Of a stretch of DNA of 43,514 bases, positions 1 to 27,901 are shown piece by piece. The DNA is from an uncultured Clostridia bacterium (lineage in GTDB: Bacteria; Bacillota; Clostridia; TANB77; CAG-508): NCBI GenBank assembly GCA_944391895.1, contig CALXVF010000001.1:1-43514 (forward strand), read 5' to 3'. The notes beneath the pieces were generated by a model, which made no database searches, was not told where the DNA came from, and worked only from the letters and a program-made list of their open reading frames with translations. Numbering within the stretch: the stretch's first letter is position 1; every line of letters begins with the position of its first letter. The position numbers and the translations under genes are program-made.

Positions 1-179
1 TTTGCAAATTCTTTTGCAACTTTTTTCCCATATTCTGTAGGCTTTCTTGTTCCCACAATTGCTAATGCTTGTGTATTTAATAGTTCTTCATTTCCTTCCA
101 CATATAATATTTGTGGCGAATTTGGTATCTTTAGTAAGTTTTTTGGATAATTACTATCCTCTTTTTTGATTAATTTCAT
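1..179 (-). CDS. dprA: DNA-processing protein DprA/Smf, N-terminal fragment (gene runs off the left edge)
   Basis: Own reverse-strand translation from the ATG at 179..177: MKLIKKEDSNYPKNLLKIPNSPQILYVEGNEELLNTQALAIVGTRKPTEYGKKVAKEFA. The YPxxL..P..LY..GN..LL..AIVGtR..t.YG pattern is typical of DprA. AAGGAG lies a few nt upstream. Confidence 0.6.
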   Translation of the reverse strand, partial: MKLIKKEDSNYPKNLLKIPNSPQILYVEGNEELLNTQALAIVGTRKPTEYGKKVAKEFA

Positions 180-276
180 TTTTCTCCTTTTGGGAAATTT
201 TTAAGAATTAAATTTTAAATAAAAATATTTTGAATGAATAAAAATATTATAATACAGTTTCCATTATTTGTAAAGT

Positions 277-309
277 AAAAGTCGTCGACAGATTTCGACA
301 ACTTTTTTT
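277..309 (-). terminator. Rho-independent terminator candidate closing the radical-SAM operon
   Basis: AAAAGTCGTCGA-cagatt-TCGACAACTTTT forms a 12-bp stem. Its single mismatch becomes a G-U pair in the minus-sense RNA. A T-run follows in the minus sense. It lies between the stop of 493..1500 and the start of dprA. Confidence 0.5.
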
Positions 310-411
310 AATATTATATCTTATAGATTTTCAATAATACAACTGAATTTTTATTATATAGAAATATGATTCATAAAACAGACAAAATCAGGTATTAATT
401 TCATTATCATT

Positions 412-444
412 AAACAGTGAATATAATAATTATACTCACTGTTT
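412..444. other. AT-rich 14-bp inverted repeat (hairpin) about 50 nt downstream of the last operon gene
   Basis: AAACAGTGAATATA-ataat-TATACTCACTGTTT with one mismatch. There is no clean T-run in the minus sense, so its function is unclear. Confidence 0.3.
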
Positions 445-492
445 TAATTTTTACATTTGCTTTTTTCTGAATTGCCATAATCACATTATCTT

Positions 493-1500
493 CTATTCTT
501 CTTTATAATGACAATTCATAATTCCACAACCATAAGTACATTGACTCATCTTTTCTCTTAACTCTTTATTTTTATTCCATATTTCTTTTAATGTCTCTGT
601 TCTAACATTTCCACATGATTTTACTCCTAATCTTGCCATATCAAAACAAAACTGAGTTTCACCATCTTCATTAATGATAAATAATGTATTCATTGCTTCG
701 CATTTTTTAAATGGCAATTTAACTGGATTTTTAAAATAAGTCAATATGTCTATAAACTGTTCTTCTGTTTGAGTTATTATTTTATGTGCACTTTTTAATT
801 TTAAAATTTCACTTATTCCTTTTTCAGCCTCTTCATATGTAGGATATAAAGAACTTTCTTCTTTCCAGTTATCTTTATATTCAGATGAAAAATTTGGTTG
901 TATTGCTTGAAAAAATATAGCATCAAAACCTATTTTCTCAAAAAATTCTATTATTCCTTTAATATTATTTAAATTATTTTTTCCTAATAAACTACTTGCA
1001 TAAATTTTTGTTTTATTATTAATATTATTTCTTAATTCTATAATATCTTTAGCAAATTTAGTTGTTAATTGAAAAGCGTCTTCATTTCCTCTAATATTAT
1101 TATGTATTTTTTCATCATTACTATCTATAGAAATAAGAATAAATTCTAGATCTAAATCTAAAATTCTCTTAAGTTCTTCTTTTTCTATTAATGTTCCATT
1201 AGTAGTAACACTTGCCCTTAAACCAACTTTCTTACATTCTTCTGCCAATTTATAAAATATATCTTTTCTGGCAAATGGTTCTCCTCCTGTAAGGCTTATT
1301 CTAATATCTTTATTCCATTTTTTTATATCATGTATTATTTTCAATTTTTCTTCTAAAGTAAGTGCATTATTCCTAATAGTAGAATCGTTTTTATGATAAT
1401 CACATTGAATACATTTTAAATTACAGGTTTCAGTAGTTCTTAGGAAAACCGTGCTAGGATTAGTTGTTAATTTTATCATACATTTCCTCATTTCTCTCAT
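493..1500 (-). CDS. Radical SAM enzyme with C-terminal SPASM/twitch-like Cys cluster
   Basis: CNLKCIQC (CX3CX2C) near the N-terminus; GGEPF SAM-binding motif; C-terminal C-x13-G-x4-C followed by QCTYGCGIMNC. ATGA start/stop overlap with the upstream gene. Confidence 0.85.
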   Translation of the reverse strand: MREMRKCMIKLTTNPSTVFLRTTETCNLKCIQCDYHKNDSTIRNNALTLEEKLKIIHDIKKWNKDIRISLTGGEPFARKDIFYKLAEECKKVGLRASVTTNGTLIEKEELKRILDLDLEFILISIDSNDEKIHNNIRGNEDAFQLTTKFAKDIIELRNNINNKTKIYASSLLGKNNLNNIKGIIEFFEKIGFDAIFFQAIQPNFSSEYKDNWKEESSLYPTYEEAEKGISEILKLKSAHKIITQTEEQFIDILTYFKNPVKLPFKKCEAMNTLFIINEDGETQFCFDMARLGVKSCGNVRTETLKEIWNKNKELREKMSQCTYGCGIMNCHYKEE

Positions 1501-2792
1501 AAATTTTTTCTATATTCTTCCGTTCCATATATTAGGTCTAAAAAAAGTGATTCATCCATTCCATCTGGCATATAATTAATATATGTCATTTTATCCATAG
1601 AATTAATATCCTCTATTGTAAGAGTTTCATCTTTGTCTTTTTGTGTTAATATTTGTCTAGGTGAATATGCTGCAATTCTTATTTCTTTTGCTCCTACTTT
1701 TTTCAAAAAACTCAAAGACTCTTTAAGATTACTTCTTGTTTGTCCTTTTATTCCCATCATTAAAAGTGGCTTTATTTCTACATTATATTTGTTAGCAATA
1801 TTAAACATATTTTCCACACTTTTTTTATAATGATTTAAATCTTTAAATTTTTTTAACTCTCTATTAGCTTCAATATCTAAAGTTTCAATTCCTACAGCTA
1901 TTTTCTTACAGCCTGATTTTGACATTTTACAAATCATTTTTTCATTTTGCAACTTATCTGTTCTTGATGTCGTTACCCAGTTAATGTTTTCACCAGTTTC
2001 AATAAGTTTATCACAAAAATCTTCAACCCATTTTTCATCATATGTAAATGTTGGTGAGAATAATTTATATGTTTCTACTTTATTTTTATTTTGTACCATA
2101 TATTCGACTAATTCATTAATATCTTTTCTTCTATCATCTTTATCAAATGTTTTTACGGCTAAACAAAACTTACAATTATATGGACATCCTCGTGATGCAG
2201 ATATCGTTACTTCATTATGTCTCAATTGCTTATATAAATCAATATCTATTAAATTGCTGTCTAAATCTGGGAAATTCCATTCTGTAAAATCCTCTCCATT
2301 ACATCTAGTAGCATTAATCCATTTATTATCTATTTTTAATGTTATTCCTGGTATGCTATTATCTAAAAAATCTTCATTTTTTAAATATTTTATATAATTA
2401 CATATTGCAACTTCCCAGTCTCCACTTTCTATTATCGCATCTAAATCTCTCAGATTTTTCTTAATAAAATTTGGGAACATACAAGTAGCATCTCCATATG
2501 CTAATAATTTTGTTTGTTTTGATATTTTGCTTACTAGTGGAACTAATTTTAGTAAAGAATTTACAGTTTCTATTCGTATTAAAAAACAAATTAAATCATA
2601 TTTATTTTTAGCAATTTCTTCCAATATTTCGGCATGAGAAATTTTAGGACTTAAGCAGTCCATAATCTTTACTTCATTTCCGTTTTTTGATACATAAGTA
2701 GCTATTTCCGCTAAATATGCCCATCTTTTTGGAATTTTAGTATTCACTGGCATATAAAATGTTTCTTCTGCTTCTACAAATAAAACTTTCAT
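1497..2792 (-). CDS. B12-binding-domain (class B) radical SAM enzyme
   Basis: N-terminal Rossmann-like cobalamin-binding-type region followed by SRGCPYNCKFC (CX3CX2C). I placed the start at the 4th codon of the track ORF (ATG at 2792) because GGGGG lies 9 nt upstream. The ORF is open to 2801. Confidence 0.85.
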   Translation of the reverse strand: MKVLFVEAEETFYMPVNTKIPKRWAYLAEIATYVSKNGNEVKIMDCLSPKISHAEILEEIAKNKYDLICFLIRIETVNSLLKLVPLVSKISKQTKLLAYGDATCMFPNFIKKNLRDLDAIIESGDWEVAICNYIKYLKNEDFLDNSIPGITLKIDNKWINATRCNGEDFTEWNFPDLDSNLIDIDLYKQLRHNEVTISASRGCPYNCKFCLAVKTFDKDDRRKDINELVEYMVQNKNKVETYKLFSPTFTYDEKWVEDFCDKLIETGENINWVTTSRTDKLQNEKMICKMSKSGCKKIAVGIETLDIEANRELKKFKDLNHYKKSVENMFNIANKYNVEIKPLLMMGIKGQTRSNLKESLSFLKKVGAKEIRIAAYSPRQILTQKDKDETLTIEDINSMDKMTYINYMPDGMDESLFLDLIYGTEEYRKNL

Positions 2793-2818
2793 TACATTCA
2801 TCCCCCTTTTTATAACAC

Positions 2819-4414
2819 TTATTTAATTCTTTCAAATAATGGTAAAATATTATCTAATATAATTTCTTTTTGTATTTCTACTGGTTTCCATTTAGTAATA
2901 TCTATATTCAAATATTTACTTAAACTTTCAGAAGAATCTGGCATAACTGGTTCAAGTAGATTAGATAAATTTGCAATAATATAAGTACAATTATATATAA
3001 CTTTATTGAATTTCTCCATATTTTCTTTATAAAGAATCCATGGTTTTTCATCATCATAATATTTATTTCCAAACTCGATTAAATTAATTATTTCTTGTAT
3101 TGCATTTCTAAATTCTAATTTTTCTATATAATCACTGACTGCACTATAAGTTTTTTCAACTTTATCTTTTATGTCTTTTTCTACTGTATTTATCATTATT
3201 TTTTCTAATCCTTTAAAATTAAGTGTTCTATTAACAAAATTGCCATACTTATTAACTAAATCAGTATTATGAACAGTTTTAAAATCTTCTAATGAAAAAT
3301 TACTATCCTTCTTTTCTGGGCCATTACTAATAAAATAATACCTTATAGAATCTATATTATATTCATTTGCTAATTCTAATATTGTAATTCCGTTTCCCTT
3401 ACTTTTAGAAATTTTTTCATCATTGATATTTAGATATTCACAAGATACCATTTTATCCGGTAATTTCATATTATCTTCCATTGCTAACAATAATCCTGGA
3501 AGTATTATACTATGAAAAATAATGTTGTCTTTTCCATGAACCATATACATCAATGTTTGTTCATTTTTCCAATAATTTTCCCAATTCAAATTATTTTCTT
3601 CACAATATCTCATTGTAGTTGTTATATATCCTAGAACTGCCTCTATCCAAACATACATTTTTTTGTTTTCATAGCCTTTTATTGGGACATCTACTCCCCA
3701 ATCTAAATCTCTTGTAACTGCTCTATCTATTAATCCTTGCTTTAAATATTTCAAAGTTTCATTCTGAGAGTTTTTTCTCCAATTAGCATGATTTTGCTCA
3801 TAATATTCTTCAATCTTATTTTGTAGTTTAGTTAGCATTAAATAAAGATTTTTATTTTTTTTCTCTATTACTGTTGTTCCGCATTCTTGACATTTTGCTT
3901 TTTTCAAATCTTCATCATTTGGATTATATCCACAGTCGCACTCTTCACCTTTTGTTTCTTTTCCACAATTCGGACACTGCAATATTAGTTCCCTATCTGC
4001 TAAGAATTTATTGCATTTTGGACAATATGGTTGTAAATCTTCCTTCTCAACTATATATCCATTATCATAAATTCTTTTAAAAATTTTTTTAACTTCCTCT
4101 TTGTGATATTCCTCTTCTGTCTTCGTATACAAATTGTAGGAAAAATTCATTTTATTAAATGCATTCTTAAATTCCATATGATATTGTTCACATATTTCTT
4201 TTGGACTCTTTTTCTCTTTTTTTGCCCTTATAGTAATTGGCGTTCCATGACAGTCTGTTCCTGAAACATATATAACATTATCTCCTAGTTTTCTATGATA
4301 TCTAGCCAAAAAATCTCCTGGCAATAATGCAACTAAATGTCCTAAATGTAAAGAACTATTTGCATATGGCCATGCACCACCTATTATTATGTTTCTACCC
4401 ATAATGATTTTCAT
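2819..4414 (-). CDS. metG: Methionine--tRNA ligase, short form (531 aa, no C-terminal tRNA-binding/dimerisation domain), embedded in the operon
   Basis: HIGH motif as HLGH (AWPYANSSLHLGHL); KMSKS motif as KISKS; connective-peptide zinc knuckles CPKC..CPNC..CDC..CQEC. The start overlaps the upstream HAD gene by 20 nt. Confidence 0.9.
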   Translation of the reverse strand: MKIIMGRNIIIGGAWPYANSSLHLGHLVALLPGDFLARYHRKLGDNVIYVSGTDCHGTPITIRAKKEKKSPKEICEQYHMEFKNAFNKMNFSYNLYTKTEEEYHKEEVKKIFKRIYDNGYIVEKEDLQPYCPKCNKFLADRELILQCPNCGKETKGEECDCGYNPNDEDLKKAKCQECGTTVIEKKNKNLYLMLTKLQNKIEEYYEQNHANWRKNSQNETLKYLKQGLIDRAVTRDLDWGVDVPIKGYENKKMYVWIEAVLGYITTTMRYCEENNLNWENYWKNEQTLMYMVHGKDNIIFHSIILPGLLLAMEDNMKLPDKMVSCEYLNINDEKISKSKGNGITILELANEYNIDSIRYYFISNGPEKKDSNFSLEDFKTVHNTDLVNKYGNFVNRTLNFKGLEKIMINTVEKDIKDKVEKTYSAVSDYIEKLEFRNAIQEIINLIEFGNKYYDDEKPWILYKENMEKFNKVIYNCTYIIANLSNLLEPVMPDSSESLSKYLNIDITKWKPVEIQKEIILDNILPLFERIK

Positions 4415-5036
4415 TCCTTTCTTTTAATTCCTCTATTAAATTTCTATTAGCCTTATTCCAATTAGAATATCCTCCATCAAATAATATTGTATCAAATCCA
4501 ATTTTTTTAGCAGATTCGATATTATTAACTTCATCATCAATAAATAACACATTTTGATTTTGTATTTTTTGCATAATCTTTATAAAATATTTTTCCTTAT
4601 CTGCCTTCTTGGTCATTCTATCAAAAACAGATATGAAAACCAATTCATTATCACAAAAATCCAAAAAATCTTTATAAAATGTTTTCACTATTGATAATCC
4701 TATTTGACTTAAATCTGAAATAATACCTATTCTATATTGTTTGCTTAAGACATCTTTTATATAAGATAATAATTCTTCATTTCTAACCACTTCAATATTT
4801 TTTATGTCATACTTAATATTATTATCTGTAACTTTTACAATTTTAAACATTTTTTCCCAAGTATCTTCTAATGATATGTTTCCATAAAATGAATCATTTA
4901 ATATCTTTGATGTTTCTTTTCTAAATTCTTCTATTGAAATATTATTATTTCTATTTTCAAAAATTTTATTTAATATTTCACCATGTATTGGTTTTAATAT
5001 TACGTTTCCTATATCCCATAATATTATATCTTTCAT
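4395..5036 (-). CDS. HAD-IA family phosphatase, YihX-like
   Basis: Motif I WDIGNV (compare E. coli YihX FDLGNV), motif II ISDLS, motif IV FIDDEVNNIESAKKIGF (compare YihX FFDDNADNIEGA). GGTGGA SD upstream. Confidence 0.75.
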   Translation of the reverse strand: MKDIILWDIGNVILKPIHGEILNKIFENRNNNISIEEFRKETSKILNDSFYGNISLEDTWEKMFKIVKVTDNNIKYDIKNIEVVRNEELLSYIKDVLSKQYRIGIISDLSQIGLSIVKTFYKDFLDFCDNELVFISVFDRMTKKADKEKYFIKIMQKIQNQNVLFIDDEVNNIESAKKIGFDTILFDGGYSNWNKANRNLIEELKERNENHYG

Positions 5037-5046
5037 TTTCCACCTA

Positions 5047-6852
5047 CTATCCTATGTGATAACTTTTTAGTTTATCAACTAATATTTTGTTAAATTCTCT
5101 CCTATTAACAGAAATTCTAATCCATTCTCCATTAATTTCAGAATATGAATTTGATAATTCTCTTATATATATTCCATCTTCTTGTAACTTTTCTGCTAAA
5201 TCTACAGCTGTAATTCCTCTTTTTATTTTACAAATTATAAAATTAGTAATACTAGGCTTTACTTCTAACCAATCAAATTTATTTAATTCATCTTCTAATT
5301 CTTTAACAAGTAAATGTATATCTTTTCTTGTTTTTTCGACAAAATCCTTATCTTTCAAACAAATAGGAAATATTACTTGTGACATTGTATTTAATGAATA
5401 TGGTATTTGCCATTTCTTATATTTTTCAATAACCTCACTATTAGAAATTAATGCTCCAACTCTTAATCCTGCAACACTAAATAATTTAGATAATGAATAT
5501 ACTATTGAAACATTTTTTAATTCTTCTACATTTTTACTTAACGTTTCATCAAAGAAATTATCATGAAGTAATAGATGTGATTCATCTATTATAAAATGGC
5601 AATTTTTATTTTCTTTTATAATTTTTAATAAATCCTTTATATATATATAAGATGATGTAGGATTATTAGGATTACAAATAAACATCATTGTTGATTCTTT
5701 AGCTGCTCTATCAAGCTGTTCTAAATCATAGTCTAACTCTTTATTTAATGTAATTTTCTTGTATTTTTTTCCTAATACTTCTAATCCTGCTGAATACCCC
5801 CAATATGTTGGAGCTATTACTGTAGCTTTTGAACTATCTAGGAATCTTGGCAACGCATATATAGCTTCAAGAGAGCCGTTTGCTATCGCTATATTTTCTA
5901 TATTCACTTTAAAAAATTCTGCTAAGTCATTGTTAATTTCAATATTTTTATAATCTGAATAAACATTAATATATCCTGAACATTGTTTTAGTGCCTGTTG
6001 AACCTTCTCTGTGGGACCAAGTGGATTAGCATTTTCCGAGAAATCATAACCTCCCATTTTTGGATATTCTTTTAACTCCATATTAACATTTTCAAAATTA
6101 TTTGAATCCGCAATTAATATAGATTTCTTTATCCATGTTTCTTCACAACAATATTTATTTTGGTTTTTTATCATATTTCCCATTTCTACATTTTTTTCAA
6201 AATGTTCTTTCGTATATTTCAATAAATGCTCATATAAATTTTTATATTCTTTTTTATATCCTAAAAAATCTTCTCCTTCTGCTCCAGTAAAAGGATTTTT
6301 GCATAAATTATCTACAAATTGACTTATTGTTACAAATCTATTAGCTGTGTATGAAAACATGACTCTTATTATTACATCCCATGCTCTATCTCTATAAGTT
6401 TCTAATATTTTTTTATTTCCAGATATAACAATTGAATTAGCTGTTAAAACATATAATAACAATCTATATTTCACATTAATAGAAGATAAAAATTCTTCTG
6501 ACTTTTCTATTTCTGGAATATAAAATTTTCTTCTAAAAATCTGGAAAGGGGGTTTCATTAACATTTTCTCTATATCAAAATAAGAATAAATTGCTTTACT
6601 TTCAAATGGTACTTCATTGTCAATTTTCATATTATTATCAAAATGAAATTTAACAGTTATATCTTTGATTTTCTTCTCATCTTCTCTATTATAATTATGC
6701 AATATTGTACATACATCTAAATCACTATTCTCAACGCCTTCAACTGAAGAACCATATAACAATACTATAGGTTCTTCATCTGGGAAAATTTTATTCACTT
6801 CTTGTGCATATTTTTTAGATAATTCTTCTATTTTTTTAGTTAAATTCGCCAT
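5047..6852 (-). CDS. Fusion protein: N-terminal Pol-beta-type nucleotidyltransferase plus C-terminal class I/II PLP aminotransferase (HisC/CobD-like)
   Basis: N-terminal LLYGSSVEGVENSDLDV (GS...DxD NTase signature). C-terminal half has NPNNPTS and the PLP-lysine motif YSLSKLFSVAGLRVG. AAAGGAG SD upstream. Confidence 0.75.
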   Translation of the reverse strand: MANLTKKIEELSKKYAQEVNKIFPDEEPIVLLYGSSVEGVENSDLDVCTILHNYNREDEKKIKDITVKFHFDNNMKIDNEVPFESKAIYSYFDIEKMLMKPPFQIFRRKFYIPEIEKSEEFLSSINVKYRLLLYVLTANSIVISGNKKILETYRDRAWDVIIRVMFSYTANRFVTISQFVDNLCKNPFTGAEGEDFLGYKKEYKNLYEHLLKYTKEHFEKNVEMGNMIKNQNKYCCEETWIKKSILIADSNNFENVNMELKEYPKMGGYDFSENANPLGPTEKVQQALKQCSGYINVYSDYKNIEINNDLAEFFKVNIENIAIANGSLEAIYALPRFLDSSKATVIAPTYWGYSAGLEVLGKKYKKITLNKELDYDLEQLDRAAKESTMMFICNPNNPTSSYIYIKDLLKIIKENKNCHFIIDESHLLLHDNFFDETLSKNVEELKNVSIVYSLSKLFSVAGLRVGALISNSEVIEKYKKWQIPYSLNTMSQVIFPICLKDKDFVEKTRKDIHLLVKELEDELNKFDWLEVKPSITNFIICKIKRGITAVDLAEKLQEDGIYIRELSNSYSEINGEWIRISVNRREFNKILVDKLKSYHIG

Positions 6853-6855
6853 ATA

Positions 6856-7557
6856 TTAAACTCCTTTCACAAAATTTAATAAATCTTCTAATTTATATCC
6901 TGCTCCTTTTATTCCTTGAGGTGTAAATTTAGGGTTTATTATTATATTTTTTAAGTTTTTATATTTGCTTTTCCATGTAATATTTGTATCATTAACTCTA
7001 CAATTACCTTCAAGATATTTTTCTAATTCTTGACCATTTGCACTTATTATTCCTGTTATATTATCATTCTCTACTGGTTTAATATTTATATTATCGTTTG
7101 CTTTTGCAATATAAACAAATAATTGCAAACATGAGTATTTTTTTCCAGTAATGTTAATATCATCTCTTAATGGCAACTTATATTCAACTATATATAATGG
7201 ATTATAATTTAAAACATCTTGGAATTTAATGGTTGAATTGTTTTCTGTATTCTTTACAATTATCGTATTTTCTATATTAGGAAATTTCAAATCTTTTATA
7301 TCTATATTAACTTCCTCTTTTAATTCTCTTTCTAATGTTTTTTCTATTTTTTCTTCCTTTTCTCTTGTTCCACCAATACCTGTAAACTTAATAATAGGTT
7401 CATTTTTTATATATTTCCAAGATTTTTCCTTGGCCAAAGCAAAATAGATTCTGTTATTTTTTATTAGTAAAACACTAGCACCTTGGTTAATTTGAAATTC
7501 CGAATCAATATATTGATTATAAAATTTATTTGCATACTCGTTAATATCTAGACACAA
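6856..7557 (-). CDS. Nudix-like hydrolase (divergent), TTG start
   Basis: G-TREKE-E-KIEKTLE-RELKEEVNI fits the Nudix box Gx5Ex7REUxEExGU except for G to N at the last G. TTG start 9 nt after AAGGAGGG. Confidence 0.45.
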   Translation of the reverse strand: MCLDINEYANKFYNQYIDSEFQINQGASVLLIKNNRIYFALAKEKSWKYIKNEPIIKFTGIGGTREKEEKIEKTLERELKEEVNIDIKDLKFPNIENTIIVKNTENNSTIKFQDVLNYNPLYIVEYKLPLRDDINITGKKYSCLQLFVYIAKANDNINIKPVENDNITGIISANGQELEKYLEGNCRVNDTNITWKSKYKNLKNIIINPKFTPQGIKGAGYKLEDLLNFVKGV

Positions 7558-7804
7558 CGGGCTTTCCCTCCTTGTATAATATATTTATGGTTTACCTCAG
7601 CATTGATATTACAAAATTCGAATACTTTTTGTCTGCAGAAAATCTTATTCAGTTTTTGTTTGAACATAATTACCAAATCGCTTTCATTAATCCTATTCAA
7701 ACTGACCATATGAAAATTTCTAAACGATACCTCTACTTACATTTGCTATGCAATCAATATAGTTGTTTTTCTTATTATATACAATAATGAAACTTTCCAC
7801 ATTT

Positions 7805-7835
7805 AACAGTTTTCAAAATAATTTTTGAAACTGTT
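7805..7835. promoter_or_regulatory. AT-rich palindrome in the 331-nt internal gap of the operon (weak terminator, attenuator or operator candidate)
   Basis: AACAGTTT(T)CAAAA-taat-TTTTGAAACTGTT: 13 bp of pairing with one bulge, about 55 nt after the decarboxylase stop, no T-run. Confidence 0.3.
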
Positions 7836-7888
7836 ATTAGTCATCCAAATTTTTATCTATTTAAAATACTTAAAAATTTTTAATAATT

Positions 7889-9367
7889 CTATTGAGAATT
7901 AATATTTAGTCTATTTTTTATTATATTTTTGATATATTCAATTAAATCATCTTGATTTTCTTCTGTTATATTATCATTACCTGACATATATCTTAACGGA
8001 TATAAATTTTTTCCTTGTTTTATCCTTCCGTTATCGTCATTAATCGAAAATTGATGCAAGAAGAACTTCCCATCCTCATCCATTATTCTTTTTATTGTTT
8101 TATTTATCTCATTAATTTTATCAACAGAGTAGCCACTCGGTGCATACATAAACATAACTGAATTTATATCAACATCATTTAGTACTATAAACCCATTTTT
8201 TATTAATTTTTCAGCAAATTCTTTAGCCATTTCATGTCTTTTTTCTATTATCTTTCCTATATCTTTTACTCCAATATTTTTTATTACACACCATACTTTA
8301 AATGATAACCAACTTTTTGATCCGATAAATGGTGTTACTTGCCCAAATGCAAATGGTTCTTGCATAATTAAGTCTGATGTTGTAGTTATTAATTTTAAGT
8401 TTTCACTATTTTTTAAAAGTAACGCACTAACTGTATATGGTGTCATTAAAACTTTATGTGGATCTGTAGAAATGCTATCAAATTTTTCTATGCCGTTAAT
8501 TTTTTCTTTCATTTTTTCACTAAAACCTAATGAAAAGCCATGACAAGCATCTGCATGAAGCCAAATATTTTCATCATATTTTTTTACAATATCAGCTACT
8601 TTTTCTAAATTATCTATTGTCATACTTCGACTATCACCAACATATGCAACAACAGCCATAACTTTTCCAGCATTTTCTTTAATTGTTTTCTCTAATTCTA
8701 TTAAATCATACTTATAATTTTGTGTAGGAACTTCTAATACATTATCTCCACATCCTATCCACATCAAACTACTTTTTATACTATAATGACCTATTCCCTT
8801 TGGGATAATAACTTTAAACTCTTCTGGTCTTTTGATTCCTTCTTTCATAGTATTCTTTTTATGATTTTCTCTTGCTAATAACATTGCTATTGCATTACTA
8901 CCTGTTCCACCATAAGTTATAATTCCACCAACATCCCATATATTTTTTATATCCTTTTTATTTCTATATCCTACAATTCTTCTTAGCCATTGTATCAATG
9001 CAATTTCTATATATGTACCTATCGGCGCACAAAAACTAGCATTTATTAAATTTTGTTGTAAAAAATCCGTTAATAACGCACCCGAAATTCCTGCAATAGA
9101 ATTACCTGCATCTGGGAAACCCATAAAATTATTTGATGAGAAATTAGTACAATATGGTAAAATATCATCCTTTATTTCTTTAATAATATCATCCATGCTT
9201 TTTCCTTCTTCTGGTAATTGGAACAGTTGATTTTGAATTTTTTCAAAATCAACTGTTTTAAGTACAACCTCGTTTTTTAATTTGAACTCTATTCCTAAAT
9301 TGATAACTTCATTAAATATTCTTTCGGCATAATCTCTATTTTTCCTATTTAATACATTTTTATCCAT
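7889..9367 (-). CDS. Group II pyridoxal-phosphate-dependent amino-acid decarboxylase
   Basis: GGTGSNAIAMLLARE, HADACHGFSL and the PLP-lysine motif STDPHKVLMTPY (S-x-D-x-HK). Length 492 aa. Confidence 0.85.
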   Translation of the reverse strand: MDKNVLNRKNRDYAERIFNEVINLGIEFKLKNEVVLKTVDFEKIQNQLFQLPEEGKSMDDIIKEIKDDILPYCTNFSSNNFMGFPDAGNSIAGISGALLTDFLQQNLINASFCAPIGTYIEIALIQWLRRIVGYRNKKDIKNIWDVGGIITYGGTGSNAIAMLLARENHKKNTMKEGIKRPEEFKVIIPKGIGHYSIKSSLMWIGCGDNVLEVPTQNYKYDLIELEKTIKENAGKVMAVVAYVGDSRSMTIDNLEKVADIVKKYDENIWLHADACHGFSLGFSEKMKEKINGIEKFDSISTDPHKVLMTPYTVSALLLKNSENLKLITTTSDLIMQEPFAFGQVTPFIGSKSWLSFKVWCVIKNIGVKDIGKIIEKRHEMAKEFAEKLIKNGFIVLNDVDINSVMFMYAPSGYSVDKINEINKTIKRIMDEDGKFFLHQFSINDDNGRIKQGKNLYPLRYMSGNDNITEENQDDLIEYIKNIIKNRLNINSQ

Positions 9368-9369
9368 AT

Positions 9370-10506
9370 TTACCCTTCCTTATTACATCTGTAACATTGA
9401 TGATTATTCATTAAGCACATTGGATCCTTTCCTAGAATATCATTAGTTGCAATATATGCATCTGTTCTACATCCTCCACAAATAGAATTATATTTACAGT
9501 CAGAAAAATGTTCTCTTAATTTTTTCATTTCTTCTGATTGATTTAAAATATCTATTAATTTTTTTTCTTTTACATTTCCAAGTTTCACACCTGTATATCC
9601 TAATAATGGACATGGGCTAACATTTCCTTCATGATCTATTCCTACCCATTCAATTCCTGCGCTACATCCCCAATATCTTTTTAATCCATTTTTATCTGTT
9701 TTTGACACACTATTACAAGTTTGCAAATTTGGAATTAATGTATCTTGTTGTTCTACATCTTTTTTCATATATTCAGGTAATTGTTCATTATGTTTTTTTA
9801 TCTCTGATTCTATAATAAGAGCATATAATGGATCTTCTACCCTTATTCTTAAATTAGGTCTATTAATAGCTATATCAAAAATTTCTAATAATGCTTTTTT
9901 ATTTTCTTCTGGTGGCAAAGTTAGCCATTTATTATTCTCTCCTCTTCCCATAGGTCTAAACCTTTTAAAATTAATTACATCTGCACACATTTCACTTGCT
10001 AAGTCAACAAATTCTTTCAAATATTCTTTATTATAGTTTGTTATTGTCATATCAATTGTCACATAAATTCCAACATTTTTTAATCTTTTTGCAGCTAATT
10101 TGACTTTTTCTATTATATCTTTTCCTCCTCGAAAAGCGTCTTCTTTTTCAGGAATTGGATTACACACACTCATAGATACGCAATTCATTCCAACATCTTT
10201 TAACCTTTTTACATTTTCTTCTGTCATAAAAAGTCCGTTTGTACACATTGACATTTCTTTCTTGGCAATTTTTTTAGCTTCTTCTAAATATTCAAATAAG
10301 TTTGGACACATAAATGGTTCTCCACCAGAAATAAAAATCATATCAGGATTAATAGTTTTTATGGATTCGGCCATTTTTCTTATTTCGTCTTTTGATAATA
10401 TTTTTTCATCTCTAAACTCTGGCCCTGAATCTGGATAACAGTGTTTGCATTTTAAATTACAATCATTATTTATTATCCAAGAAACTGCTGCTATGTAATC
10501 AATCAT
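9370..10506 (-). CDS. Radical SAM enzyme with C-terminal SPASM domain (AhbD/NirJ/PqqE-like architecture)
   Basis: CNLKCKHC (CX3CX2C), SGGEPF, then C-terminal CSAG..G-NVSP-C ... CKYNSICGGCR ... DPMC. AAGGAGG SD upstream. Confidence 0.85.
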   Translation of the reverse strand: MIDYIAAVSWIINNDCNLKCKHCYPDSGPEFRDEKILSKDEIRKMAESIKTINPDMIFISGGEPFMCPNLFEYLEEAKKIAKKEMSMCTNGLFMTEENVKRLKDVGMNCVSMSVCNPIPEKEDAFRGGKDIIEKVKLAAKRLKNVGIYVTIDMTITNYNKEYLKEFVDLASEMCADVINFKRFRPMGRGENNKWLTLPPEENKKALLEIFDIAINRPNLRIRVEDPLYALIIESEIKKHNEQLPEYMKKDVEQQDTLIPNLQTCNSVSKTDKNGLKRYWGCSAGIEWVGIDHEGNVSPCPLLGYTGVKLGNVKEKKLIDILNQSEEMKKLREHFSDCKYNSICGGCRTDAYIATNDILGKDPMCLMNNHQCYRCNKEG

Positions 10507-10562
10507 AATTTTTCCTCCTTATTATTCAATTATCTCTATAATCTCTTATCTATCATGCTATT

Positions 10563-10591
10563 ATTATATCATTTTAGTTCTTATATGTAAA
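10563..10591 (-). promoter_or_regulatory. Sigma-A-type promoter candidate for the operon
   Basis: Minus sense reads TTTACA (10591..10586), a 17-nt spacer, then TGaTATAAT (extended -10, TATAAT at 10568..10563). It lies about 55 nt upstream of the ATG at 10506. Confidence 0.5.
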
Positions 10592-10627
10592 TAATTTTGA
10601 CGTTTTTTGACAATTTTTTCCGTTACG

Positions 10628-10646
10628 TCAAGTGAAAAGTTAAATG
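10628..10646. repeat. IS left terminal inverted repeat
   Basis: TCAAGTGAAAAGTTAAATG; its exact reverse complement is at 11624-11642. Confidence 0.75.
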
Positions 10647-10739
10647 CAATTCTGTAAATAGAAATTAGTCCTACATTTTTCTTTGTTGTACAACTTAATA
10701 TATATTTGCAAATGTTTTTGGTGGAATAGAGTATGAATT

Positions 10740-11514
10740 ATGATTGAAAAATGTAAGCAACTTACATTAAGTCAAAGAATTAAATTTGAAGAAATGTTAG
10801 ACCAAAAACACAGAGAATTTGAAATTGTTAATGAATTAGATAAAAGTCAATCCACTATTGCTAAAGAAGTCAATAAACATAAGAAGTTTAAGCCTCGCGG
10901 CCCTCTTAGAAATGACAATATGTACAATTGTAAATTTTTATTAATTGTGAAAAAAACCAAACTAAAAAAGCGTAAAGAGCCACAGAATTATGATGGAAGA
11001 ACATATTCCTATTCCCTTAACTACAAGGTTTTAAATCCTTATCTTCCTACTACTAAAATGGACACTGTATACAATAGTCAATCTGGCCCATATGTTCAAA
11101 CTTTTATATTTGAAAATGCTTGTTTTATGCTTGGCATACTATATATGGATAAAACTGCTGACTCTATGTCTACGACTTTAAGTATTTTTCAAGATATATT
11201 ATCTAATGAAGAATATAAAGAACTTTTTTCACTTTTACTTACAGATAGAGGTACTGAGTTTGGTAGAACTGACAATTTGAAATTAATATTGAAACAGGTG
11301 AAATTAGAAGTAAAATGTTCTACTGTGATTCGCTACAATCTAGTCAGAAACCTCATGTAGAAAATAATTATAACTTTATTAGATAAATTCAGTACTTAGA
11401 GAATCTTTAGGTAGTAAAACACCTTTTGAAGTATTGACTTTTATTTATGGTAAAAAAACACCAGATAAATTAAATATTCTTTTACTAAAGTCAAATATTA
11501 TTTCCTTTTACTGA
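10740..11514 (+). pseudogene. IS30-family transposase pseudogene (three frame fragments)
   Basis: Fragment 1 has an HTH-like N-terminus (LTLSQRIKFEEML..STIAKEVNKH) and DDE-region remnants (MDTV...LLTDRGTEF). Fragment 2, in another frame, reads MFYCDSLQSSQKPHVENNYNFIR*. Fragment 3 reads ESLGSKTPFEVLTFIYGKKTPDKLNIL. Roughly 100 aa between the HTH and the catalytic core are missing. Confidence 0.7.
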
Positions 11515-11623
11515 AAAAAATTAAATTTTGTTATGCATATTGTTATTACTTTTTCTAATTTTATAGAAAAGTAATATTTATACAAAAATATTGCCTTTAA
11601 GTTGCTTTTAATCATGCAAATTT

Positions 11624-11642
11624 CATTTAACTTTTCACTTGA
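11624..11642. repeat. IS right terminal inverted repeat
   Basis: CATTTAACTTTTCACTTGA; exact reverse complement of 10628-10646. Confidence 0.75.
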
Positions 11643-11666
11643 ACATTTTTTAATGTTGCAAAAATT

Positions 11667-12380
11667 TTAATTTTCAAAATAGTCCATTATTCCATTATAA
11701 ATACCCCAAGCAAGCTTTTCTTGATATTCATCAGTTTGTAACTTCTTTTCTTCCTCTGGATTTGATAAAAATCCACATTCTACAATTGTAATAGGTATTT
11801 CCACATTTTTCATAATATATACGGTATTTAATGTATGAGGTGTCCTTTTATTATTATCTGAAATAGACGAATTTAAACTTAGTTGTATACTAGTTGCTAA
11901 TTTTTTAGAGTCTTCATTACCATTTTTATAAAATGTTTGCCAACCCGAATAACTACTATCTGAAATTTTATTTAAATGTATAGATACAAATACATCTGCT
12001 GATGAACTATTTCCTATTTTTACTCTATTCTTTATATCTGAAACCTTTTTTTGTGCAATTGTTTTAGCATCTATTTCATAAATTGAATTATCATCTGACC
12101 TAGTTAAAATTACTGTAGCTCCGCTACTTTCTAATAATTTTTGAATTTTTAAAGTAATTTTTAAGTTTAGCGGTGCTTCTAATGTTCCAGATGTACTTTC
12201 TGCCCCTTCATCAGGTGTCCCATGCCCAGCATCAAGTATTATAACCTTATTAGTTACTGGTAATGACATTACTGGAATGATTTCAACAGGTTTTAATCTC
12301 CTTGCAGAATAAAAAAATACTGATAGAAAAACACAACAAGTAATAATTGTAGCTCTTTTTATATTTTTACTTTTTAACAT
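11667..12380 (-). CDS. cwlD: N-acetylmuramoyl-L-alanine amidase, CwlD-like (germination-specific)
   Basis: N-terminal membrane anchor, then ILDAGHG..DEGA, FVSIHLN and VECGFLSNPEE motifs of the Amidase_3 family. Size and layout are typical of CwlD. Confidence 0.8.
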   Translation of the reverse strand: MLKSKNIKRATIITCCVFLSVFFYSARRLKPVEIIPVMSLPVTNKVIILDAGHGTPDEGAESTSGTLEAPLNLKITLKIQKLLESSGATVILTRSDDNSIYEIDAKTIAQKKVSDIKNRVKIGNSSSADVFVSIHLNKISDSSYSGWQTFYKNGNEDSKKLATSIQLSLNSSISDNNKRTPHTLNTVYIMKNVEIPITIVECGFLSNPEEEKKLQTDEYQEKLAWGIYNGIMDYFEN

Positions 12381-14638: not shown

Positions 14639-15580
14639 TTAATACCATCCCTTTTTGCATGAATGATTCCATGCTGCTGATGGGCTTCCATATCTTGATT
14701 TAATATAATTTAGTCCCCAGTTGATTTGTGTTTTATAGTTTGTTAAATAGTCTGAACCAGCTGATGCCATTTTACTTGCAGGCAATGCTTGAGGTATTCC
14801 ATGTGCTCCTGAGCTTGAATTATGCGCTGCTGGGTTCCATCCACTTTCTTTATTCCATAGTTTTACTAAAGCTTGAAAGTCTGCATCAGACCATCCATAA
14901 TCAAAACATCTTTTTTCTGCATATGCTTGGTATTCTGCAACAGATCCTGTTACAATTCCACCTCTTGATGTAACTTGCTTTGTTCTAACTTCAACTATTT
15001 TATCTACTGGCTCTTTTATTACTTCTGATGAAATTTCTGTTTTTTCAATTTCTGTACCAGATTGATATCTTATTTTATATGTTACCCTTTTTAGACCATT
15101 AGATCCACTTTGTACTACTCTATTTTGAGTTGCATAACTTCCATTTGATACGTCTTTTGTTATTGTTTCAAAAGGTATTTCAACTTCTTCTGTTACTACT
15201 TTTTCTACAATTTGTGTATAGCTTGCTAATATTTCTTCTGCTGTCATATAAGAAGTGTCATCTGTTTGTTTTGCACCTTTTGTTATAGTAATTGTTTTAT
15301 TATCTGATAATTCTTCATCAATATTTGGTGTAACAGTTTCATCGTCTAATACAACAATATGATTTTCTGCTAAAATATCTGATATTTTTGTACTTGTTGT
15401 CATAACATCCATTTCGTATCCGCTTGAAAGTAATATTTTAACAGATGTAAGCTTTTGACTTGTAGCCATAACGCTCATCATACCAGCTAGTATTAAGAAA
15501 ATTATTGTTATTATGAAAATTTTCTTGAGCGAAATAGTTGCTTTCTCTTGCTTATTTTGTTTACTTATTCGTTTCCTCAT
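14639..15580 (-). CDS. YabE-like cell-wall protein: membrane anchor, DUF348, G5 domain, C-terminal lytic-transglycosylase-like (Apf-type) domain
   Basis: G5-type segment VEIPFETI..VVQSGSNGLKRVTYKIRYQSGTE. C-terminus LWNKESGWNPAAHNSSSGAHGIPQALPASKMASAGSDY..YGSP..AW. Start at the ATG at 15580 after AAAGGAGG. Confidence 0.7.
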   Translation of the reverse strand: MRKRISKQNKQEKATISLKKIFIITIIFLILAGMMSVMATSQKLTSVKILLSSGYEMDVMTTSTKISDILAENHIVVLDDETVTPNIDEELSDNKTITITKGAKQTDDTSYMTAEEILASYTQIVEKVVTEEVEIPFETITKDVSNGSYATQNRVVQSGSNGLKRVTYKIRYQSGTEIEKTEISSEVIKEPVDKIVEVRTKQVTSRGGIVTGSVAEYQAYAEKRCFDYGWSDADFQALVKLWNKESGWNPAAHNSSSGAHGIPQALPASKMASAGSDYLTNYKTQINWGLNYIKSRYGSPSAAWNHSCKKGWY

Positions 15581-15812
15581 AAAACCTCCTTTAAGTAACA
15601 CAAGTATTATTATAACATCTTTTATTAAATATGTCAAATTAGGTCTTAATTTCCAGTTTTGCTTACGGCTCAAAGGCTTTTATTTTCAAGTTACATAATA
15701 TTTTTGTTTTAATCACTGAAAACAAGCCATATTATATTTTTTACTTTTTTACTTGTTAATTTTTTCATATTATGATATATTAATAATATATAATATGAAA
15801 AAGGAGGATATT

Positions 15813-16370
15813 ATGGGCTGGATTATTTTAGCAATTGTAGTTGTAATTGCTATTATACTTGTTGTCATATACAATAATTTAGTTACATTAAGACAACGTG
15901 TACAAAACGCATGGAGTCAAATAGATGTTCAACTACAAAGAAGATTTGATTTAATTCCTAATTTAGTTGAGACTGTAAAAGGATATATGAAACATGAAGA
16001 GTCAACTCTTACTAAAGTAACTGATTTACGTTCTTCATGGGCAAAAGCATCAACTGTAGAAGAAAAGGCTAATCTAGATAATGCTCTTTCTGATACTTTA
16101 AAAACTATTATGGCTGTTGCTGAGAATTATCCTGATTTAAAAGCTAATCAATCATTTAATGCTATGCAAGCAGAACTTTCTGAAACAGAGAATAAAATTG
16201 CTTATTCAAGACAGTTTTATAATGATACAGTTACAATGTATAATACTAAATTAGAGACATTTCCTTCTAATTTAGTAGCAAATATGTTTGGATTCAAAGC
16301 ATCTACATTATTTAATGTAGATAATGAAGAAGCTAAAAAAGCTGTAAAAGTAGATTTTGGAAATAACTAA
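15813..16370 (+). CDS. lemA: LemA family protein
   Basis: N-terminal TM segment, then [42 protein letters not shown] at 15813 follows AAGGAGG. Confidence 0.85.
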
Positions 16371-16375
16371 TTTAA

Positions 16376-16477
16376 AAATTCACCAATTTTTTTCTATTTC
16401 AAGCGAGCGAAAGCTTGGAGTAAGCTGTGCGCCACGTCCTCGTGGCGTGAAATAAGAAAAAAATATTGGTGAATTTT
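16376..16477. repeat. Copy A of a GC-core element nested in a long AT-rich hairpin; fills the lemA/tatD convergent spacer
   Basis: The arms AAAATTCACCAATTTTTTTCTATTTCA and TGAAATAAGAAAAAAATATTGGTGAATTTT pair with two bulges. The core at 16402-16447 contains the box GCGAAAGCTTGGAG (16407-16420), a 5-bp AGCTT/AAGCT hairpin and a 7-bp CGCCACG-tcct-CGTGGCG hairpin. Confidence 0.6.
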
Positions 16478-16478
16478 A

Positions 16479-17258
16479 TTATTTAGCTATTTGAAAAACT
16501 CTTTCTGCATTTTCATATGTTAATCTTGCAATTTTTTCTTCACTCATTCCTTTGACTGAAGCTATTTTTTTCACAATATATTTTAAATTTATTGAATTAT
16601 TTGTTGTACCTCTAACAGGTTCAGGTGCTAAATATGGACTATCTGTTTCTATAAGCATTCTATCTGTCGGTACCATTTGTATTATTTCATCAGCATTTTT
16701 TGAATTTTTAAATGTAACTGGTCCTGCCATAGAAATATAATACCCAAGTTTAAGTGCTTCTTTTACTAATTCTCTATTTAATGGACAACAGTGGAAAATT
16801 CCTTTATTTTTTACTGTTTTTTCTTTAAGCATTGTAATTGTATCCATCACTGCATCTCTAGTATGAATTACAATCGGTAGTTCATATTTATTAGCTATGT
16901 CTATTTGCTTCGAGAATGCCTCATATTGGATTTTTTTATCTATATCATAATGATAGTCAAATCCTATCTCTCCAACCGCCAAAATCTTTCCTGAGTTCAA
17001 ATTGTCCATAATAATTTTGTCTATCTCTTCTATGTCTTGTTGCCAGTCTTCACCTAAATCATTTGGAGATATTCCTGCTGTTGTATATATAAATGGATAT
17101 TTTTTTGATAATTCTAGGTTTATTTTTGTTCCTTCTAAACTATATCCGGCACTAACAATTCTTGTAACACCTTCATTATATACTTTATTTATGATATCGT
17201 CTCTTTCTTCATCAAAACGATAACTATCATAGTGTGCATGTGAATCAAAATATTCCAT
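16479..17258 (-). CDS. tatD: TatD family metal-dependent DNase/hydrolase
   Basis: N-terminal FDSHAHYD, EIGFDYHY, VIHTRDA and ETDSPYL motifs. Confidence 0.9.
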   Translation of the reverse strand: MEYFDSHAHYDSYRFDEERDDIINKVYNEGVTRIVSAGYSLEGTKINLELSKKYPFIYTTAGISPNDLGEDWQQDIEEIDKIIMDNLNSGKILAVGEIGFDYHYDIDKKIQYEAFSKQIDIANKYELPIVIHTRDAVMDTITMLKEKTVKNKGIFHCCPLNRELVKEALKLGYYISMAGPVTFKNSKNADEIIQMVPTDRMLIETDSPYLAPEPVRGTTNNSINLKYIVKKIASVKGMSEEKIARLTYENAERVFQIAK

Positions 17259-17267
17259 TTTTCCTCC

Positions 17268-17628
17268 TCATTCTATTACTGCTACTGCTGTAGCCACTGC
17301 ATAGTCTTTTATATGTGATATACTTAAATCCACTTTTACATTAATATTTGTTTTTACATAAGGTCTTCCATTTTCATCATTTAATATTTCTACATCTTTC
17401 CAACCGTATGCTAAATTTATTATCTAATTTTTTTGATATTGCCTTAAATACCGCTTCTTTTGCAGCAAATCTAGCAGCATAATGTTGGTATTTCATTACA
17501 TTTTTTTCTTCACAATATTCAATTTCTTTTTCTGTAAATACTCTATTTAGGAATTTATCTCCTAAGTTTTCTATACTTTCTTGTATTCTTTTTACTTCAA
17601 TTATATCATTTCCTACATACACATTCAT
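17268..17628 (-). pseudogene. acpS: Holo-[acyl-carrier-protein] synthase interrupted by a +1 frameshift
   Basis: Frame 1: MNVYVGNDIIEVKRI...AARFAAKEAVFKAISKKLDNKFSIRLERCRNIK*. The shifted frame continues with the canonical AcpS C-terminus NLAYGWKDVEILNDENGRPYVKTNINVKVDLSISHIKDYAVATAVAVIE*. Total length is 361 nt (3n+1). The shift sits in the AAATTT run near 17413-17419. Confidence 0.75.
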
Positions 17629-17629
17629 A

Positions 17630-18406
17630 TTACGCAATCCAATTTCCAAGATTTATTGTTCCTATTATTATTAATACGATTAATAATATTATAGTAATTC
17701 TAAACATACTATCATGGCTATCTAATCTAGTATTTTTATAAAATAAGTCAAATTTGTTTTCGACAGATATATATAATTTTTCTATTCCTAGTTTTTCTTC
17801 CCATTCATCTATCTTCTTATTTTCTACTGCATTATCAGTTATTCTTTTTGTATAAATATCTTGAACAAAATCTACAAACAATTTTCTGTTCCTATTAAAC
17901 ATTTCTTTGTTTTCCATTATTTTATCTAATTTACTTAGGAACACAAATTTATATAAAACCAGAATATAGCTATATATCTCTTCCTCCTCAGCAGATATTT
18001 TAAATGTTTTGCTTTTATCTATATTGATTTCTTCAATGTCTTGTAAATAATTACTTTCTATTATATCCTTTTCTACTTCATCTCCTATTATGAACCCGAT
18101 TCCAGTTGAAAAGCATACAATTTGAGTACCATCTTTTTCAAAAATAGTGCATTTGTAATTATTACATATAGCAGCTCTAGTTTCGACATCCATTTTTTCA
18201 AATTCTTTGCTATCTTTTATATTAAATGTCCAAAACATATATTCACGAATTACAGGAAGATAATATTTAAATATTTTACTATCTGTCTTCTTATTCCAAA
18301 TTTTAATTTTATAACCTGTAATTAGAAGTTTCTGATAAAATTCATGATAATATTTTGTATTAATCAAAATAGGTTTTATCTTATATTTATTTTCACTTTC
18401 CATCAT
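17630..18406 (-). CDS. Hypothetical protein with C-terminal transmembrane anchor
   Basis: Long ORF with AAAGGA upstream and a stop 1 nt before the acpS ATG. C-terminal hydrophobic segment ITIILLIVLIIIGTI. I recognise no motif. Confidence 0.5.
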   Translation of the reverse strand: MMESENKYKIKPILINTKYYHEFYQKLLITGYKIKIWNKKTDSKIFKYYLPVIREYMFWTFNIKDSKEFEKMDVETRAAICNNYKCTIFEKDGTQIVCFSTGIGFIIGDEVEKDIIESNYLQDIEEINIDKSKTFKISAEEEEIYSYILVLYKFVFLSKLDKIMENKEMFNRNRKLFVDFVQDIYTKRITDNAVENKKIDEWEEKLGIEKLYISVENKFDLFYKNTRLDSHDSMFRITIILLIVLIIIGTINLGNWIA

Positions 18407-18423
18407 TCGTTTTCCTTTCCGTT

Positions 18424-19950: not shown

Positions 19951-20061
19951 CTTTACCTCCATATACTTTTATTCATATATAATATATCAGTTTTATGTGT
20001 TTTTTTCAATAGATTTACAAAAAAATTGAGCTTCAAGGAACATCCTCAAAGCTCACATATC

Positions 20062-27887: not shown

Positions 27888-27901
27888 ATTCTCCCTCCCT
27901 T

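Follow-up and report, generated by a model that had tools for sequence, protein, structure and literature searches.

Aminoacyl-tRNA synthetase (aaRS) genes located in biosynthetic gene clusters are among the most productive handles for antibiotics and tRNA-dependent chemistry. Self-resistance synthetases are encoded in the clusters for mupirocin (mupM, IleRS), borrelidin (borO, ThrRS), indolmycin (TrpRS2), albomycin (SerRS2) and agrocin 84 (agnB2, LeuRS). To our knowledge, no case of cluster-borne self-resistance involves methionyl-tRNA synthetase (MetRS), and we know of no natural-product pathway linked to this enzyme. The gene considered here is a MetRS gene, metG, which lies in an eight-gene operon on a 43,514-nucleotide stretch of DNA from an uncultured Clostridia bacterium (contig CALXVF010000001.1 of assembly GCA_944391895.1; the whole stretch is referred to below as the window). 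Full-text literature searches turned up no account of such a MetRS-containing cluster, and a paper on tRNA-deacylase mining (PMC13149037) deals with a different system. Window metG resembles the self-resistance genes (see also the review PMC13518217) in being co-localised and, as predicted, co-transcribed with biosynthetic genes. It differs from them in being a native ortholog rather than a diverged copy, with no resistance-type substitution at the positions checked. The enzyme is probably tied to a methionine-related pathway. As discussed below, the tentatively preferred reading, plausible but far from secure, is that it supplies activated methionine to the pathway encoded by the operon.

A second group of described systems comprises aaRS-derived ligases and tRNA-dependent steps, such as the Cys:GlcN-Ins ligase MshC, VlmL/VlmA (valanimycin), AcmD/AcmF (ascamycin), PacB and the Fem-like aminoacylation of an amino sugar in BD-12. 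As in these systems, a class I aaRS is found in the window among a nucleotidyltransferase (NTase), a Nudix-like protein, a HAD phosphatase, an AprD4-like radical S-adenosylmethionine (rSAM) enzyme and an aminotransferase; these tailoring enzymes seem to act on nucleotides or amino sugars, a setting that fits the donation of an activated amino acid. MshC-type ligases have lost tRNA dependence and diverged, whereas window MetRS keeps every anticodon-recognition residue and is 90-93% identical to housekeeping orthologs. Unlike the tRNA-dependent steps, the window operon has no recognised transferase partner. A related logic is known from the puromycin/A201A pathway, which uses an aminotransferase (Pur4), a Nudix pyrophosphatase (Pur7), a HAD phosphatase (Pur3) and an amino-acid ligase (Pur6). 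The window operon likewise combines an aminotransferase, a Nudix-like protein, a HAD phosphatase and amino-acid activation, a resemblance of enzyme functions that serves as a lead only. It differs from puromycin biosynthesis in that oxidation would need a rSAM enzyme and that the ligase is a true MetRS.

The original prediction described a minus-strand open reading frame (ORF) at 2819-4414 of 531 aa with the motifs HLGH and KISKS and four Cys knuckles (CPKC, CPNC, CDC and CQEC), all of which are confirmed in the sequence. In every database homolog of the window protein, including those in other genomic contexts, the second ATG (MGRN/MSKN...) is the start; the real start is therefore placed at 4402, giving a protein of 527 aa that ends at a TAA codon (2819-2821). 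This gene is predicted to encode a canonical MetRS. The protein matches tRNA-synt_1g over the full profile (PF09334; E-value: 2.1e-129) as well as Anticodon_3, and scores above the NCBIfam cut-off for TIGR00398 (metG; 476.6 bits vs 336.35). MetRS cores in the PDB align with it across residues 6-511. It falls under the full-length threshold of PRK00133 (510.4 vs 587 bits; aligned to positions 4-531 of 676), solely because the C-terminal tRNA_bind domain is missing. A Pfam search of window MetRS found no match to this Trbp111-like domain (PF01588). The housekeeping orthologs L014 and L016 are likewise below the PRK00133 threshold and without PF01588, and their family scores are equivalent to those of window MetRS. 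Truncated MetRS can function as monomers, as in the E. coli M547/M551 fragments (PDB 1QQT, 1F4L), and many bacterial MetRS have no Trbp111-like domain. Like M547/M551, the window enzyme consists of a catalytic domain, a zinc insertion and an anticodon domain, with no dimerisation/tRNA_bind domain. The short form alone is therefore no evidence of a special function.

The functional residues of the enzyme were assessed in an alignment to an E. coli MetRS sequence, and 32 functional positions were compared with the non-cluster orthologs L016 and L014. The HIGH and KMSKS motifs and the zinc cysteines (equivalents of C145/C148/C158/C161) are kept, as are the methionine-pocket residues Y15, D52, W253, A256, Y260 and H301 and the anticodon-recognition residues N391, R395, N452, D456 and W461 (E. 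coli numbering). No difference from L016 or L014 was found at any of the 32 positions. Two changes from the E. coli enzyme, L13 to W and I297 to N, are shared by all members of the Clostridia group, the long-form P0117 among them, and so are not specific to cluster-embedded copies. The Anticodon_3 domain and every anticodon-recognition residue are retained, unlike the degeneration expected of MshC-type ligases. The ratio of nonsynonymous to synonymous substitution rates (dN/dS) of metG is 0.08-0.18; it is slightly raised on the short branches leading to the window and to the sister genome L048, but the cluster genes span the same range at that divergence, so that these values tell nothing about relaxed selection after embedding. 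The GC content at third codon positions (GC3) of metG matches that of host genes.

The original prediction took the short form as the mark of an unusual extra copy. This premise did not hold, as MetRS of 526-545 aa are normal in the lineage and make up most of the 120 best database clusters. Relatives of the long form, which carry PF01588, belong to other Clostridia and are no closer than about 62-63% identity. A scan of species-representative genomes gave 42 MetRS loci in about 40 genomes, with one native-type MetRS per genome; most come from uncultured Clostridia or Clostridium metagenome-assembled genomes (MAGs), and the best identity to window MetRS is 93-94%. The 527-aa short form is thus the normal MetRS of a low-GC Clostridia MAG lineage. 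In the sister species L014 (2319-8290), a 90% identical ortholog lies inside an aaRS supercluster (dtd - metG - hisS - class II aaRS of 423 aa - tyrS). A 93% identical homolog is found in the order nrdD-nrdG-metG, a 68% identical one in the order recO-metG-cysS, and further homologs adjoin folD, ligA or the gene for a cation ATPase. Neighbour-joining analysis nests the window protein, on a short branch, among orthologs in such housekeeping contexts, and the window gene is orthologous to the housekeeping metG of its sister species. This grouping is the one that the original prediction had named as evidence against a special copy; the window gene does not, however, share the genomic context of these orthologs, which the prediction had named alongside. 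The neighbourhood of metG differs in almost every species examined.

These results bear on the proposal that window metG is a dedicated extra gene, a resistant or biosynthetic paralog in a genome whose housekeeping metG is another gene, of the long form. Two MetRS genes do occur together in some genomes of the wider group, and the long-form relatives with tRNA_bind exist in other Clostridia. However, all of the lineage has the short form, which is also the one located in aaRS operons, the species-representative genomes each gave a single native-type locus, and the window branch shows neither acceleration nor any substitution of diagnostic value. The second copies that are known are of a foreign GC-rich type rather than long-form. 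A dedicated paralog is therefore very doubtful. From its orthology, intact residues, family scores, dN/dS and GC3, the window protein is the ordinary MetRS of the lineage and not a diverged resistance or ligase paralog.

The operon that contains this enzyme is encoded on the minus strand in the order radical SAM/SPASM protein B, PLP-dependent decarboxylase, Nudix-like protein, a fusion of an NTase with an aminotransferase (NTase-AT), HAD phosphatase, MetRS, B12-binding-domain rSAM protein (B12-rSAM) and radical SAM/SPASM protein A. The HAD and B12-rSAM neighbours of metG are as originally described (Pfam, NCBIfam). The overlap between metG and the HAD gene is also real, but it measures 8 nt from the start at 4402 (ATGGGTAG) rather than the 20 nt first reported. 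Downstream, the distance from the metG stop to the B12-rSAM start is 17 nt to the ATG at 2801 or 26 nt to the ATG at 2792, as stated earlier. The latter start, already preferred in the original prediction, has the better-spaced ribosome-binding site (AAAGGGGG) and is the choice of the gene callers (431 aa). No terminator-like site was found on the minus strand between 10506 and 493, and the sole strong promoter-like site precedes the first gene of the operon; as the DNA is 25% GC, weak internal promoters are possible. From this arrangement, metG is predicted to be co-transcribed and translationally coupled with its neighbours. Rfam searches gave no T-box, riboswitch or other family in the whole window (gathering threshold) or in positions 1-11500 (E<=1), and no T-box or riboswitch match upstream of metG in eight related loci. 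Regulation therefore cannot separate housekeeping from cluster-specific copies.

The association of MetRS with this and related clusters recurs. The cluster family was compared across four lineages, and the second, foreign MetRS clade described below across three loci. The placement of MetRS between HAD and B12-rSAM is the same in six metagenome contigs (99.6-100% identical) and in the sister genome L048; the cluster proteins of the latter share 94-97% identity with those of the window. A second Clostridia clade (L035 and L039, with the fragments L062/L063) has cluster proteins 54-79% identical to those of the window; here B12-rSAM directly follows HAD, and a native-type MetRS (61%) closes the cluster after a remnant of rSAM A. 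In a tightly packed Endomicrobia MAG locus (L066), the order is B12rSAM - HAD-like - MetRS - NTase-AT fusion - Nudix, and the MetRS, of the HLGN/KFSTS type, is 32% identical to window MetRS and passes TIGR00398. Most of the 42 species-representative MetRS loci have no radical SAM gene within 10 kb. A scan of JGI metagenomes with the NTase-AT alignment returned two short fragments of L039-type clusters and one remote match, a tblastn search of plasmids with the NTase-AT protein gave only CobD/HisC-like partial matches, and scans of IMG/VR viral contigs found nothing. It is argued that the repeated capture of MetRS, in different subtypes and positions, points to a functional tie. The link between MetRS and cluster that was originally proposed is thus upheld as far as the shared operon and its recurrence in another Clostridia clade and in Endomicrobia are concerned, without the unusual-copy premise on which it was built.

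Several observations accompany these loci. In two metagenome strains (L003 and L004), a change from A6 to A7 at about window position 1936 splits B12-rSAM into ORFs of 288 and 142 aa, which is either a real frameshift or an assembly error; metG is 100% conserved in both. The decarboxylase of the second Clostridia clade lies in two overlapping frames in three independent assemblies (L039 1614-3105, L035, and L062 1496-2960). The cluster of this clade is possibly in decay, or else it works with a split gene. The Endomicrobia locus also encodes, at 2052-6184 and 14974-21812, a BtrH-like acyltransferase, an AMP-ligase, a carrier protein, an SDR, a CGGC protein, a DegT aminotransferase, a GT2 glycosyltransferase and a 657-aa B12-radical SAM enzyme, elements that recall aminoglycoside (butirosin) tailoring or glycan decoration.

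One account of the locus is that the sole housekeeping metG was rearranged into the operon without a role in the pathway. The context of metG is highly fluid in the lineage and the enzyme is indistinguishable from its housekeeping orthologs. The B12-rSAM frameshift in the two metagenome strains leaves metG intact, and the homologous cluster of a Cellulosilyticum isolate (L065) has no MetRS within 10 kb, both of which fit such an account. Against it, MetRS has entered homologous clusters by at least two, and probably three, independent events, one of them in another phylum, with another subtype and the same HAD-like adjacency, and native-type MetRS is also found inside two other kinds of radical SAM operon. 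Repeated chance adjacency would be very improbable for one gene among roughly 1,500-2,000, so that a mere passenger role is distinctly unlikely.

The first of these other operons (L060/L061) encodes a QueC-like PP-loop protein, a radical SAM protein, an amidohydrolase, a native-type MetRS and a degenerate MetRS-like protein. The last (468 aa; L060 15491-16897, minus strand) has no HIGH motif and no zinc knuckle, with RMSSS replacing KMSKS, and may act as a non-canonical ligase. A tRNA-like gene of 73 nt lies antisense between the native-type MetRS gene and this degenerate gene, with a perfect TTGACA-17-TATAAT promoter before it and a T run after it. Its anticodon loop (UUACAUGA) has 8 nt and contains CAU. 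In a different species (L030), which likewise has a native-type MetRS and a degenerate MetRS-like protein, the tRNA-like gene follows MetRS and is identical at 71 of 73 positions; the two differences are a compensatory change from G-C to A-U in the anticodon stem, and the promoter spacer has diverged. These features suggest tRNA-dependent chemistry in this cluster type, and the 8-nt loop speaks for a carrier without a decoding function.

A pyrrolysine-like pairing, in which a non-canonical amino acid made by the operon would be charged by MetRS onto a dedicated tRNA and incorporated by the ribosome, was among the three options originally proposed, and was there already considered weakened by the lack of a tRNA gene in the window. 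The L060/L030 tRNA-like gene beside MetRS, with its CAU, is the one feature in its favour. ARAGORN and Rfam find no tRNA gene in the window, in agreement with the original prediction, and none in L001 or L048. The methionine pocket is unchanged, and the 8-nt loop points away from decoding. This option was accordingly dropped as extremely improbable.

The other radical SAM operon with a native-type MetRS (L058/L059) encodes a MoaA-like radical SAM protein, a PP-loop Dph6-like protein, a Nudix protein and an HTH_38 homolog. The last (L058 9071-9817, minus strand) is 59-60% identical to the window regulator at 10740-11360 (plus strand), which hints at a regulatory module shared between the two clusters.

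Three cluster types (L035/L039, L058/L059 and L060/L061) have a second MetRS at a distance of about 0.3-7 kb from the native one embedded in the cluster. In L035/L039 it is convergent and follows immediately after the first, and is 48% identical to the window protein. The members of this clade share 48-50% identity with the native type and 70-78% with one another. Their composition is foreign (GC 35-38%; GC3 27-32% vs 12-18% in neighbours), and the L058 copy is flanked by DDE transposase genes. The second MetRS of these relatives is best explained as horizontally acquired. Genomes with two MetRS are known from Streptococcus pneumoniae (metS2) and Bacillus anthracis/cereus (MetRS1 and MetRS2), where they are linked to resistance to REP8839-type inhibitors. 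L039, L058 and L060 resemble these genomes in having a foreign second MetRS, once flanked by insertion sequences, beside a native one (for aaRS as drug targets, see the review PMC7916415). They differ from them in that the two copies are of one and the same zinc-knuckle (E. coli/archaeal-like) family instead of one of each MetRS type, and the resemblance applies to the relatives and not demonstrably to the window genome. The same three loci also resemble the self-resistance systems in having a divergent, acquired second MetRS beside the cluster.

This pattern raises the possibility of self-protection. The product of the operon would inhibit MetRS or act as a methionine antimetabolite; an aminoacyl-adenylate mimic assembled by the NTase, Nudix and phosphatase chemistry would be one example. 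Co-expression of the target MetRS from the shared promoter would raise its dosage during production, and in relatives the acquired second MetRS would be the immunity gene. The divergent second MetRS near the embedded native enzyme in three cluster types, its foreign GC3 and its transposase flanks in L058 are all consistent with this. Acquired resistant synthetases such as mupA and pneumococcal metS2 show the same pattern. The MetRS-free Cellulosilyticum cluster would be explained if the MetRS of that host were insensitive by nature. However, the window copy shares 90-94% identity with orthologs outside such clusters and is the same at all checked pocket residues, and is therefore not a resistant variant. 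The DNA to one side of the gene (about 39 kb, window) and to the other (about 9 kb, L001) contains no second MetRS. We know of no natural inhibitor of MetRS and of no MetRS immunity gene, and none was found in the literature searched. Dosage is rarely enough against tight-binding adenylate mimics. Self-protection is thus the main alternative but a rather unlikely one. Of the first of the original options, that of a MetRS inhibitor, the part that may hold is a MetRS-directed product, relatives having a foreign second MetRS beside such clusters; classical self-resistance conferred by the window copy is unlikely.

The original option that fits best is that MetRS supplies or ligates methionine, in the form of the donor role introduced above. 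This role is favoured because the composition of the recruited enzymes is of the native type, as is the phylogeny of the Clostridia copies, because they keep their tRNA-recognition residues, and because one branch pairs MetRS with a dedicated tRNA-like carrier. The proposed model is as follows. The normal metG of the lineage would have been moved or copied into the eight-gene operon in the window species and its closest relative. There, MetRS would deliver Met-AMP or Met-tRNAMet for a methionyl-containing or methionine-derived product, probably nucleotide-linked, while it would continue to charge tRNAMet for translation.

A number of points weigh against this donor role. The window operon contains no recognisable aminoacyl-transferase that uses Met-tRNA (Fem/GNAT, CDPS or PEARL type), and window MetRS itself bears no sign of specialisation. 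The Cellulosilyticum cluster indicates that MetRS is dispensable in cis, cells having a MetRS in trans. The L035/L039 cluster looks partly degraded, with stop codons in the rSAM_A remnant (L039 ~7930-8100) and a split decarboxylase, and the recurrence rests on the four cluster lineages inspected. The foreign second MetRS beside related clusters fits toxicity and immunity at least equally well. In a wider scheme, the window operon would belong to an undescribed group of anaerobe clusters, in gut Clostridia and Endomicrobia, that recruit the host MetRS for biosynthesis of a methionyl- or methionine-derived, nucleotide-linked product that interferes with MetRS or translation; some producers would compensate with an acquired second MetRS, and one branch would use a non-decoding tRNA-like carrier with an 8-nt CAU loop. 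Taken as a whole, this wider scheme is speculative and unlikely to be right in every part.

The features of the operon and of related loci are listed in Table 1.

Table 1. Positions of metG, the surrounding operon and the features of related loci discussed in the text
Feature	Locus	Position	Strand	Description
metG	Window	2819..4402	-	Canonical MetRS core, 527 aa; E. coli/archaeal-type with two zinc-knuckle pairs, without C-terminal tRNA_bind domain
Radical SAM/SPASM protein B	Window	9370..10506	-	First operon gene; 378 aa, NirJ/AhbD-like, no RRE domain detected
Group II PLP-dependent amino-acid decarboxylase	Window	7889..9367	-	492 aa
Nudix-like protein	Window	6856..7557	-	233 aa
NTase-AT fusion	Window	5047..6852	-	601 aa; N-terminal Pol-beta-type nucleotidyltransferase (G-S...D-x-D) and C-terminal HisC/CobD-like PLP aminotransferase or decarboxylase
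HAD-superfamily phosphatase	Window	4395..5036	-	213 aa; weak Pfam and NCBIfam matches; stop overlaps metG start
B12-binding-domain radical SAM protein	Window	1497..2792	-	431 aa; sole significant PDB match AprD4 diol dehydratase
Radical SAM/SPASM protein A	Window	493..1500	-	Last operon gene; 335 aa; dprA next in longer contigs
HTH_38 regulator	Window	10740..11360	+	206 aa; divergently transcribed
Best operon promoter-like site	Window	10591-10563	-	TTTACA-17-TGnTATAAT, 11/12 matches, upstream of first operon gene
tRNA-like gene	L060 (also L061)	16961-17033	+	73 nt
tRNA-like gene	L030	2412-2484	-	73 nt
Second MetRS	L039	10158-11759	-	
Second MetRS	L035	~10320-11921	-	
Second MetRS	L058	3823-5424	+	
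Second MetRS	L060	10001-11599	+	

The NTase-AT fusion is the signature gene of the cluster family. The AlphaFold model of its NTase domain is confident (pLDDT 92.5), and gives only weak fold matches, to Tam41, DrrA, MntA and AadA (an aminoglycoside adenylyltransferase); a sequence profile of the domain searched against the PDB gives minimal-NTase matches only (E-value >= 0.02). A peptide made by ribosomal synthesis with later post-translational modification (RiPP) was considered as the product and set aside, as the rSAM/SPASM proteins have no detectable RiPP recognition element (RRE) and the only small ORF (53 aa) sits in a spacer missing from L048. This spacer of 330 nt (7558-7888) separates the decarboxylase and Nudix genes, which in L048 are a few nt apart; the ORF lies at 7548-7709 (minus strand).

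The host is a low-GC (25-33%), spore-forming Clostridia MAG with spoIIE, cwlD, mreBCD, minC and pcrA, and in longer contigs the operon lies between cwlD and dprA. The tatD gene was confirmed at 16479-17258, where the original prediction had placed it. Upstream of it (17377-18406, minus strand) are ORFs of 90 and 258 aa, the latter (17630-18406) without a Pfam match. Two giant tandem surface-protein genes at 22704-32722 (minus strand) encode proteins of 1727 and 1606 aa with SdrD_B and DUF11 repeats, and mark the GC peak of the window (30-34%).

MetRS is a clinical target, and the inhibitor CRS3123 is directed against C. difficile. If the window gene is only a hitchhiker, the case would show that a missing C-terminal domain and embedding in an operon are by themselves no sign of a specialised aaRS. 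A native, apparently essential MetRS is wired into a radical SAM, PLP and nucleotide-tailoring operon of uncultured gut anaerobes, and the arrangement recurs across phyla. A MetRS-centred natural-product system would, if true, be the first of its kind. If the link is biosynthetic or protective, it would point to new methionine-based chemistry in the gut microbiome and to natural determinants of resistance to MetRS inhibitors.

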